DNA of 64,000 bases from Escherichia coli O127:H6 str. E2348/69 (GTDB lineage: Bacteria > Pseudomonadota > Gammaproteobacteria > Enterobacterales > Enterobacteriaceae): assembly GCF_000026545.1 (NCBI RefSeq), contig NC_011601.1; one strand, written 5' to 3'. Of this stretch, positions 3,001 to 6,000 are shown one piece after another. Position numbers: made by a program. Each line of letters opens with the position of its first letter. The stretch's first letter is position 1.

Positions 3001-6000
3001 TTGGTGTGCCCATCATGATACCAAATGCGTTTTTTTGTGGGTTATACCAGTCTATGACTTTTGCGACAGTGTCTTTATGACCCTGAATTGTCTTGTTTTT
3101 TAAATCAGTAAACTGATTACTTTGGATTCTTACAGCAACGAAATCCCGTTTTATATTGAAAATAGATAAAACTTTTTCTGTAATGTAGTTTTCTTTTATT
3201 AAATCTGCATTTCGATATGATAATAGTTTCGCTGGTGTGGGAGTGGTGGTTATTTTTCTGTTTAACAGTTTTCCTGTTTGCTCTGTTTTTATTAGAGAAT
3301 ATGATGTTTTTTCGTTGCGTAATATGTTACTAATTGATGATAAGCAGTTCTTTATGATTGGCATAATAAATTCCTTGTCTTCATATGGATGAACTTTTGA
3401 TAGGAAGTCTTATATTATATAAACTAATTGCTATCATTTTTGTAGTTAATTGTCTAGTAGAGTTGTCATTTTTTATGTTCTATTCTTATTGATTCTGTTT
3501 AGGCATAGCCATAATGCATGATGGTGTGGCGTGGCAAAGCAGAGATATACAAAGTCTGCCACATGTTTTTATGACAAAAAATTAGCGCAAGAAGACATAA
3601 AATCACCTTGCGCTAATGCTCTGTCTCAGGTCACTAATACTATCTAAGTAGTTGATTCATAGTTACTAGATATGTTGTGTTTTGTAGTATTATGCAGTCT
3701 ATTTTTTAGACTAAATATATTGTAACACATTGATATTAATGGTCTTTAGCGTTTCACGTTCAGCTTTTTTATACTAACTTGAGCGAAACGGGAAGGTAAA
3801 AAGACAAAAAGTTGTTTTTAATACCTTTAAGTGATACCAGATGGCATTGCGCCATCTGGCAGAGTGATTAACTAAATATCGCAGTAATCGAGGCACTCGC
3901 CAGAGAGTGAAAATGAACGTTAAACCCGACCATCGCGCCGCTGGCACCTTCATCGACATCAATACGTTCTACATCCAGCGCGTGAACGGTAAAAATGTAG
4001 CGATGGGTTTCGCCTTTCGGCGGCGCTGCGCCATCGTATCCGGTTTTACCAAAGTCGGTACGCGTCTGCAAAACGCCGTCTGGCATTGCTACCAGACCAG
4101 AGCCAAACCCTTGCGGTAATACGCGGGTATCAGCGGGTAAATTAACAACTACCCAGTGCCACCAGCCGGAGCCAGTTGGCGCATCCGGGTCGTAGCAGGT
4201 GACAACAAAACTTTTCGTTCCCACAGGAACATCATCCCACGCCAGATGCGGTGAAATATTATCGCCATCGTAACCCATGCCGTTAAAGACATGACGATGC
4301 GGCAGCTTATCGCCATCGCTCAGATCGTTACTGATGAGTTTCATTAGAATGCCTCCGGGAAACCTCGGCCTTCAGACCGGGGAGGAAAGGAGGCGGTTTT
4401 CCGACTAACTGTACTTTGCATAATCACATTTTCCTCTTTAGTATGTGAACACATGAAACGCGCATATAAATACCGGTTTTACCCGACAACTGAGCAGGCT
4501 GAGCTTTTAGCTCAGACGTTTGGCTGTGTGCGCTTCGTCTACAATTCCATCCTTCGTTGGCGTACCGATGCGTACTACGAGCGAAAAGAAAAGATCGGTT
4601 ATCTACAGGCCAACGCTCGCCTTACGGCGCTCAAAAAAGAGCCTGAATACATATGGCTGAATGATGTTTCCTGCGTTCCCCTCCAGCAGTCGTTGCGCCA
4701 CCAACAAGCCGCCTTTGCTAACTTCTTTGCCGGACGAGCTGCATATCCGGCTTTCAAAAGCAAACGGCACAAACAGGTGGCTGAGTTCACTGCCAGCGCG
4801 TTTAAACACCGTGACGGCGAGTTGTATATAGCAAAGAGCAAGTCGCCGCTGGATGTTCGCTGGAGTCGAGAATTACCATCTGCGCCGTCAACCGTTACCA
4901 TTTCCAGAGATAGCGCTGGCAGGTACTTTGTTTCCTGCCTGTGTGAGTTTGAACCTGTATCAATGCCTGTTACCGCTAAAACGGTCGGCATTGATGTGGG
5001 CTTAAAAGATTTATTCGTCACCGATACCGGATTCAAAACCGACAATCCCCGCCACACCGCTAAATATGCGAAGCGATTAACGCTGCTACAGCGACGTTTA
5101 AGCAGGAAGCAAAAAGGCTCAAGAAACCGTATTAAAGCCCGCTTAAAGGTCGCCCGACTCCACGCGAAAATCGCCGATTGCCGGATGGACAATCTGCACA
5201 AGTTGTCCCGCAAACTGATTAACGAAAACCAAGTTGTTTGCGTCGAATCCCTCAAGGTGAAAAACATGATCCGCAACCCGAAGCTGTCTAAAGCAATAGC
5301 TGACGCAGGCTGGAGCGAACTTGTTCGCCAGCTCCAGTACAAAGGCAAATGGGCCGGGCGGTCAGTGGTCGCCATTGACCAGTATTTACCGTCCTCAAAA
5401 TGCTGTAGTTGCTGCGGTTTCACCATGCAAAAAATGCCTCTTAATGTTCGTAAATGGCACTGCCCTGAATGCGGCGCAGACCATGATCGCGACATTAACG
5501 CGGCACGTAATATTAAAGCTGCCGGGCTGGCAGTGTTAGCCCACGGAGAGCCTGTAAACCCTGAATCGCAGCACGCGGCTTAGGTTCGGCTCGTTGAAGT
5601 GGGAATCCCCGTCATTCAGGGCGGGGAGCCGTCAAGAGCCCTCCTTTCTTGTTTGCAGAAAGTGTAGCCAGAAACCCTCACGCTGACTTCCCGTTATTGG
5701 CAAAAAAATGTTTCATCCTGCACCGCACGGTTAACCGCTGCGGTCAGACGCTGCAACTGTTGCGGGAGAATAATATAGGGCGGCATCAGGTAAATCAGTT
5801 TGCCAAAAGGCCGGATCCAGACACCCTGTTCGACAAAGAATTTTTGCAGCGCTGCCATATTCACCGGACGAGTGGTTTCGACCACGCCGATTGCCCCCAG
5901 TACGCGCACATCGGCAACCATTTCGGCGTCACAGGCGGGGGCAAGTTGCTCGCGTAGCTGCCCTTCAATAGCCGCCACCTGATGCTGCCAGTCGCCAGAT

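Follow-up and report, generated by a model that had tools for sequence, protein, structure and literature searches.

What keeps a solitary, apparently intact tnpB gene in the spacer between bioA and ybhB of Escherichia coli O127:H6 str. E2348/69, and how does the DNA that carries it sit between two host genes? The locus lies in a stretch of 64,000 nucleotides (nt) of contig NC_011601.1, the whole of which we call the window and number from its first letter. A preliminary description of the window had offered two readings of the gene, as part of a non-autonomous insertion sequence (IS) or as a domesticated copy. Between these, the evidence favours a still-complete non-autonomous IS, and we hold with considerable confidence that the element is a complete but non-autonomous member of the IS200/IS605 family, of the tnpB-only (IS1341) type, whose gene is the gipA of E. 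coli. The element itself is already known; what looks new is the pattern in which it and its relatives dock at the start codons of other genes.

A complete element inserted against the ybhB start codon

Over positions 4300-5750 the window matches enteropathogenic E. coli (EPEC) E2348/69 at 100% identity. Alignment to the empty sites of K-12 and of the phylogroup B2 strain UTI89 places the limits of the inserted DNA at window positions 4345-5635, a length of 1,291 bp, without target-site duplication (Table 1). The insert had initially been drawn as far as 5693, but positions 5636-5693 are native spacer and lie outside it. In K-12 the bioA stop is 58 bp from the ybhB start, in agreement with the preliminary description, in which the two genes are close neighbours there and the insertion separates them; the open reading frame (ORF) list and the RefSeq annotation likewise agree that tnpB lies between the two, on the strand opposite to both. 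With slashes marking the junctions, K-12 reads ...GAGTTTCAT/GAACCCTCCTTTC... and the window ...GAGTTTCAT/TAGAATGCC...GCCGTCAA/GAGCCCTCCTTTC.... The uninterrupted site of K-12 and UTI89, TTTCAT/GAACCCTCC (beginning GAACCC), corresponds in the occupied allele to TTTCAT, followed by the element from its left end (LE) to the GTCAA of its right end (RE), and then GAGCCC. Comparison of the bioA-ybhB region across genomes, as had been proposed, therefore defined both the ends of the IS and its target site, TTCAT, and the occupied allele is the product of a single insertion event 3' of TTCAT in the bioA-ybhB spacer.

Table 1. Positions and strands of the element, its parts and the two flanking genes in the window.
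Feature	Position	Strand	Basis or remark
tnpB (E. coli gipA), 376 residues, intact	4453..5583	+	ORF list, Pfam, NCBIfam, ISDra2 alignment
Omega RNA (right-end element RNA, reRNA) scaffold, predicted	5518..5635	+	Overlaps tnpB 3' end and RE; 5518 is the start of the first stem
Predicted guide segment GAGCCCTCCTTTCTTG, 16 nt	5636..5651	+	Guide length by analogy with ISDra2 TnpB (PMC8612924)
Transposon-adjacent motif (TAM) TTCAT	4340..4344	+	Also found in the empty site; shares bases with the ybhB start codon; NTCAT in relatives
LE, 108 nt	4345..4452	+	Boundary from the empty site; LE conserved in relatives
RE, 52 nt after the tnpB stop	5584..5635	+	Boundary from the empty site
ybhB (PEBP-family 'kinase inhibitor')	3868..4344	-	ORF list, RefSeq annotation, K-12 comparison
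bioA	5694..6983	-	Convergent with tnpB; bioA stop 58 nt past RE

Both ends have the features by which the IS1341 group of the IS200/IS605 family is recognised. The LE can form an outer stem, in which GCCTCC at 4351-4356 pairs with GGAGGC at 4389-4394, and an inner hairpin (4363-4368 with 4377-4382); the RE contains a subterminal hairpin at 5606-5627 and terminates in GTCAA (5631-5635), a last pentamer that is conserved in relatives. The hairpin regions of the two ends (4357-4384 and 5601-5628) are direct repeats with 79% identity. Subterminal imperfect palindromes are thus found at both ends without terminal inverted repeats, the insertion lies 3' of a short conserved motif without duplicating its target, and no tnpA lies inside the element, whose LE and RE are too short to leave space for such a gene. 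The LE region presumably holds the tnpB promoter.

The element is inserted directly before the ATG of ybhB: reverse-complemented, the CAT of the TAM (4342-4344), flush against the left end, gives the start codon of ybhB, whose native ribosome-binding site, AAGGAGG, now lies past the RE, 1.3 kb away. Read on the minus strand, positions 4345-4356 give GGAGGCATTCTA/ATG, in which a GGAGG Shine-Dalgarno motif stands at 7-nt spacing from the ybhB ATG. Judging by this arrangement, translation of ybhB would continue by means of the Shine-Dalgarno motif carried by the LE. An outward promoter for ybhB was also considered and rejected, the one sigma-70-like site found (4449..4420, minus strand) being of a kind no commoner than in shuffled sequence.

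An intact TnpB with a conserved guide RNA scaffold

The preliminary description of an intact TnpB of 376 residues, with its RuvC motifs and zinc finger, holds in full. The protein matches HTH_OrfB_IS605, OrfB_IS605 and Cas12f1-like_TNB in Pfam and scores 369.5 bits against the NCBIfam model guided_TnpB (cut-off 100), and RefSeq labels it an "RNA-guided endonuclease InsQ/TnpB family protein". Its best natural relative of solved structure is the ISDra2 TnpB (PDB 8exa/8bf8; E=9e-75), alignment to which shows that the RuvC triad D181/E265/D347 is kept; the cysteines of the zinc finger are also present (C317/318/320/321 and C337/340), completing the D-E-D triad and zinc ribbon that characterise TnpB. 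The CRISPR repeat array by which a type V CRISPR-Cas system is recognised is absent from positions 4300-5720, and matches to the NCBIfam Cas12f2 and C2c8 models fall far under their cut-offs. The protein is thus an intact and, as predicted from its sequence, apparently functional nuclease. Compared with nine relatives of 82-93% amino-acid identity, it gives ratios of nonsynonymous to synonymous substitution (dN/dS) of 0.09-0.19, with no broken ORF. By this measure TnpB is under purifying selection across the family, which fits the earlier proposal of selection for function rather than decay. Upstream of the gene, at 4410-4452, TTGAC-like and TAnnnT hexamers conserved in the aligned relatives lie so near the tnpB ATG that the transcript may be leaderless or almost so; the tnpB start is not preceded by a Shine-Dalgarno motif.

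The 3' end of tnpB and the RE together encode what we predict to be an omega RNA, composed of a stem at 5518-5534, a long stem at 5540-5603 and the RE hairpin (5606-5627). When the last 170 nt up to the RE were aligned from 28 relatives, RNAalifold returned 40 pairs, and compensatory changes occur in 22 of these. With this structure held fixed, 95% of cells are paired, compared with ~40% for slid partners, and the covariation reaches 0.399 against 0.05-0.10 for slid partners, a value attained in 0/500 shuffles. Pairing and covariation therefore indicate that a conserved structured RNA spans the 3' end of tnpB and the RE, as is typical of the reRNA scaffolds of TnpB systems. No Rfam family reaches its gathering threshold within 4200-5800; the only match there is a sub-threshold one to RAGATH-18 at 5540-5605 (29 bits, E=0.006), which coincides with the main covarying long stem. 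RNAs derived from RAGATH-18 are known TnpB guide RNAs (PMC11061315), and the Rfam model was built on other TnpB lineages, so that the present clade is picked up weakly.

The closest characterised system is ISDra2 TnpB with its omega RNA, from Deinococcus radiodurans (PDB 8exa, 8bf8, 8h1j; PMC8612924, PMC10097598). The alignment of the two proteins covers their entire length, and they share the RuvC triad and the zinc finger. The scaffold of the ISDra2 guide RNA overlaps both the gene's 3' end and the RE, and the guide comes from the flank, an arrangement that is predicted here, and both elements have a 5-nt TAM 5' of the LE, TTGAT in ISDra2 and TTCAT in the window. The difference is that ISDra2 has a tnpA of its own whereas the window element has none.

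The predicted guide and the empty site

By analogy with ISDra2, TnpB and the omega RNA would take the 16 nt past the RE, GAGCCCTCCTTTCTTG, as guide. This segment is the displaced native leader of ybhB and includes the complement of the native Shine-Dalgarno motif. The complex would then be expected to cut any copy of the guide sequence flanked by TTCAT, that is, the empty bioA-ybhB site, and so could act in retention or homing of the element. Such a role has been shown for the TnpB proteins of ISDra2 and of a Geobacillus IS605 element. The empty alleles of K-12 and UTI89 read TTTCAT/GAACCCTCCTTTCTTG and differ from the guide by one mismatch, at TAM-proximal position 3: the three bases after the RE (5636-5638) are GAG in the window and GAA in the empty sites of K-12 (locus L001; L numbers denote the loci compared) and UTI89 (L097). 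In the 64-kb window, TAM plus guide matches nothing but the RE junction, which has TCAA instead of TCAT, and no second target with up to three mismatches was found in the window. An altered TAM at the RE junction is the usual means by which TnpB elements avoid self-cleavage. A lone 71-bp fragment without tnpB, 94% identical to the RE/omega RNA region, occurs on plasmid p21AR0133C (L005, 3001-3071); it may have been left behind as a solo right end, or may be a miniature derivative.

Distribution and mobility

We scored a site as occupied when a match covered at least 80% of the query, across 5,426 complete E. coli genomes. The element is present in ~342 of these (~6%), at a median of one place per genome, while ~5,068 genomes, including those of UTI89, S88 and APEC O1, have an empty, uninterrupted site. 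All 30 best matches lie at bioA-ybhB, among them E2348/69, CFT073, Nissle 1917, LF82, NRG857c and ATCC 25922, and the occupied genomes that were checked belong to phylogroup B2. The element belongs to the accessory genome and is restricted by lineage; it is not core, in keeping with the preliminary description, which had named presence at this locus in all E. coli, K-12 included, as the mark of a core sequence.

Although the window copy is single and fixed, close relatives occupy many different sites. A protein 97% identical to that of the window (P0004) is found in Escherichia both at the kdpC-kdpD junction (L098/L099) and at yciY (L100/L090), its element abutting the start codon at both kdpD and yciY. 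Identity of P0004 at the two sites indicates that such insertions are recent and implies that an element without tnpA is moved by a transposase acting in trans; a Y1 TnpA would have to be supplied from elsewhere. A more distant relative, 81% identical at the nucleotide level, lies between pro and prt in ~44 P1-like phage-plasmids. In pZ1323CEC0018-4 (L003, 3891-5185), as in L071, L072 and L077, this copy abuts the ATG of pro, a gene for head processing, and in the P1-like phage-plasmids the upstream portal ORF extends ~17 nt into the RE before its stop.

These properties are in keeping with the IS1341 group as catalogued in E. coli and Salmonella (PMC9956272), whose members have tnpB alone, hairpins in LE and RE and low copy number, and whose distribution, like that of the window element, is independent of IS605 elements. 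All relatives with a locatable LE are tnpB-only, with the LE ~100-125 nt from the tnpB ATG, and look-ups in GTDB genomes, viral contigs and protein contexts produced no full-length relative with both tnpA and tnpB. The proposed search for further copies and for a matching tnpA thus gave a median of one copy per genome and no mobilising TnpA. The preliminary description had also stated that no Y1 tnpA lies nearby, which is correct for the element and its neighbours but not for the window, since an intact Y1 TnpA is encoded by IS200C (48150-48860; tnpA ORF 48286-48744, plus strand) between ompX and opgE, at a distance of 43 kb from the element described here. We considered IS200C as a source of the mobilising transposase; compared by eye, its hairpins, AACCCCCAGCTAGGCTGGGGGTT and CCTCCGGCTATGCCGGAGG, are unlike those of the element's LE and RE, and the idea is unsupported.

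Several findings weigh against parts of this account. The LE Shine-Dalgarno sequence GGAGGC is predicted to pair with the upstream GCCUCC in RNA of the ybhB strand and may be masked, and GCCTCC also belongs to the outer DNA stem of the LE, where its conservation could serve transposition and not translation. The GAG of the guide, set against GAA at position 3 of the empty site, could make the cutting of real empty sites less efficient. A cognate TnpA was looked for and not found. Finally, E. coli copies are 99-100% identical, because of which selection inside the species is unmeasurable and can be measured only family-wide. The guide mismatch, the lack of tnpA and the near-identity of the copies would all suit an inert relic, recently acquired, stranded and inactive, that looks intact through too little time for decay, and one strain, 23CRST031 (L004, 2524-4225), does carry a frameshifted tnpB copy. 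In the same record, however, the adjacent ybhB has an internal stop, and two side-by-side defects suggest sequencing or assembly errors rather than decay. Given in addition the low family-wide dN/dS, the freedom of nine relatives from stop codons and an omega RNA whose pairing has been kept through many compensatory changes, we consider a relic very improbable.

Docking at start codons among relatives

The position of the window element at the ybhB ATG is repeated among its relatives, which were collected from GTDB representative genomes, viral contigs, assembly look-ups and Gifsy-1, and whose LEs were located by alignment to curated LE junctions. The targets at these junctions fall into the classes NTCAT, TTAT and TTAC, and every right end has GTCAA, or a sequence close to it, as its last bases. 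In 20 of the 26 independent TCAT-class insertions with a recognisable LE, a long ORF directed away from the element has the CAT as its start codon; the exceptions are L018, L067-69, L117 (intragenic), L093, L064 and L020, and at L016 (DapA-like) the CAT may be an internal methionine instead. Annotation or gene calls back the starts of ybhB, P1 pro, Gifsy-1 gpU, yciY, kdpD, finO, an ABC permease and a substrate-binding protein. Others are backed by NCBIfam profiles that begin within their first few positions, namely TauD (1-282/282), BcsB, FieF, a GST, a tail protein L (lambda-like), an MFS transporter and a dehydrogenase. Taking the TCAT sites of the annotated 64-kb window as the null, gene starts account for 5.7% of all such sites and for 27% of the non-coding ones, and the corresponding binomial tails for 20/26 are 2e-20 and 2e-7.

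Since TCAT is the complement of ATGA, an element inserted in this way lands between the ribosome-binding site and the ATG. At L008, L063, L074 and Gifsy-1, and nearly so at L034, the native junction is an ATGA stop/start overlap, and there the TCAA of the RE, which reads TTGA on the complementary strand, restores the TGA that ends the upstream gene, without a change of position. The LEs of enterobacterial members differ (GCCTCC, GCCCTCC, TTCCTCC, ATCTCCC), and each of them sets a purine-rich stretch that resembles a Shine-Dalgarno motif at 7-8 nt from the ATG. Docking of this kind would allow scarless insertion at operon junctions, with the LE of enterobacterial members providing a Shine-Dalgarno motif and the RE rebuilding the upstream stop. 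Replacement of the Shine-Dalgarno motif is not universal: in Pseudomonas and Zobellella (L016, L017, L019, L041) the elements abut starts with an LE that begins CAGTTTTGCGCG and lacks the motif. In Gifsy-1 (L096, 2393-3683) the original gipA element is flanked by gpZ and gpU, both tail genes, and the annotated gpZ stop falls within the last five bases of the element (GTCAA), replacing the native ATGA overlap.

Whether this TnpB-only clade, with its NTCAT TAM and an RE ending in GTCAA, is actually built to dock at start codons is a question on which we find the arguments evenly balanced. A 4-nt target alone cannot select start codons, and the bias may come either from targeting at insertion or from later selection. 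We found no description of start-codon docking in the literature searched, and the survey of the IS1341 group (PMC9956272) is silent on start codons and on the sites and targets of insertion. Docking would let the element live in the late operons of phages, the transfer operons of plasmids and operons of the chromosome. If docking is truly an evolved trait, it would represent a new insertion-site logic for IS200/IS605 elements, would explain the persistence of TnpB in essential phage and plasmid operons, and would offer a natural example of insertion that preserves both neighbouring reading frames.

Identity with gipA and the question of domestication

The window protein is 86% identical, over 376/376 residues, to the "Peyer's patch-specific virulence factor GipA" of Gifsy-1 (tblastn against phages). 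The primers published for LF82 gipA (PMC6280354) match exactly, with no mismatches, at 4523-4542 and 4857-4880, predicting an amplicon of 358 bp where 357 bp was published, and LF82 carries the element at bioA-ybhB. The LF82 genome paper (PMC2941450) lists gipA in LF82, 536, CFT073 and E2348/69. The gene of the element is therefore the published gipA, and the element, already annotated as TnpB in RefSeq and already named, is by itself ordinary. Bao & Jurka 2013 (PMC3627910) called Gifsy-1 GipA TnpB-like; the terms "gipA" and "RNA-guided" never occur together in the literature that we searched. The Gifsy-1 element (AF246666; Stanley et al. 2000) shares the architecture of LE, RE and omega RNA with that of the window and also stands against a start codon, that of gpU. 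It differs in lying in a prophage tail operon and not in the chromosomal bioA-ybhB spacer, and its LE hairpin is a perfect palindrome.

This identity matters because gipA serves in dozens of papers as a virulence gene or as a marker, by polymerase chain reaction or fluorescence in situ hybridisation, for Crohn's-associated E. coli, is treated in reviews as a marker for, or virulence factor in, adherent-invasive E. coli (AIEC; PMC7279240, PMC7205867), and is listed among Salmonella phage "effectors". According to the account of Vazeille 2016 given in PMC7279240, gipA of LF82 is induced by bile salts and in macrophages and supports colonisation of Peyer's patches, and Salmonella gipA is transcribed in every condition tested (bioRxiv 10.1101/787010). 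Such reports, together with the intact ORF and a single copy fixed at one locus in the ~342 occupied genomes, speak for a domesticated TnpB, which, alone or together with its RNA, would be kept in B2 by a host function as a GipA 'virulence factor', for instance as an RNA-guided regulator or a stress-response nuclease, and not as a selfish element. We nevertheless think this improbable. Both ends, the TAM and the omega RNA are as intact as in mobile relatives, and a nearly identical element is found at kdpD and yciY in Escherichia. The guides of E. coli (GAGCCCTCC...) and Gifsy-1 (CGTGAAAGATAA...) are unrelated, which makes a shared RNA-guided target unlikely as the cause of shared phenotypes; on this comparison of guides, the phenotypes of LF82 and Salmonella gipA would not be explained by a common RNA-guided target. 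Furthermore, work on other strain collections failed to reproduce the association between gipA and AIEC, which may mirror phylogroup (PMC7205867), and since the element would supply the ribosome-binding site of ybhB, the effects of gipA deletion could run through ybhB or bioA as polar effects.

Comparison with the TldR proteins (bioRxiv 10.1101/2023.11.30.569447) points the same way. Like the window element, these are TnpB homologues fixed beside a host gene and take their guide from neighbouring sequence. TldRs, however, have lost RuvC residues, being nuclease-dead, and their transposon ends, whereas D181/E265/D347, LE and RE are all kept here, so that neither of the losses that define a TldR is seen. 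A complete non-autonomous IS remains the reading that we prefer, and a widely cited "virulence factor" is then the nuclease gene of a transposon, equipped with a guide RNA, whose gipA phenotypes need re-testing.

The prophage end beside ybhB

On the far side of ybhB from the element, window positions 1-3400 hold the end of a lambdoid prophage, with nleH, a truncated cif, a transposase fragment and espJ (2711-3364, minus strand). The prophage end carries type III effector genes and adjoins ybhB; it is located in the attachment region of lambda. Prophage predictions in IMG/VR (L046-L062) extend from there up to the tnpB gene.

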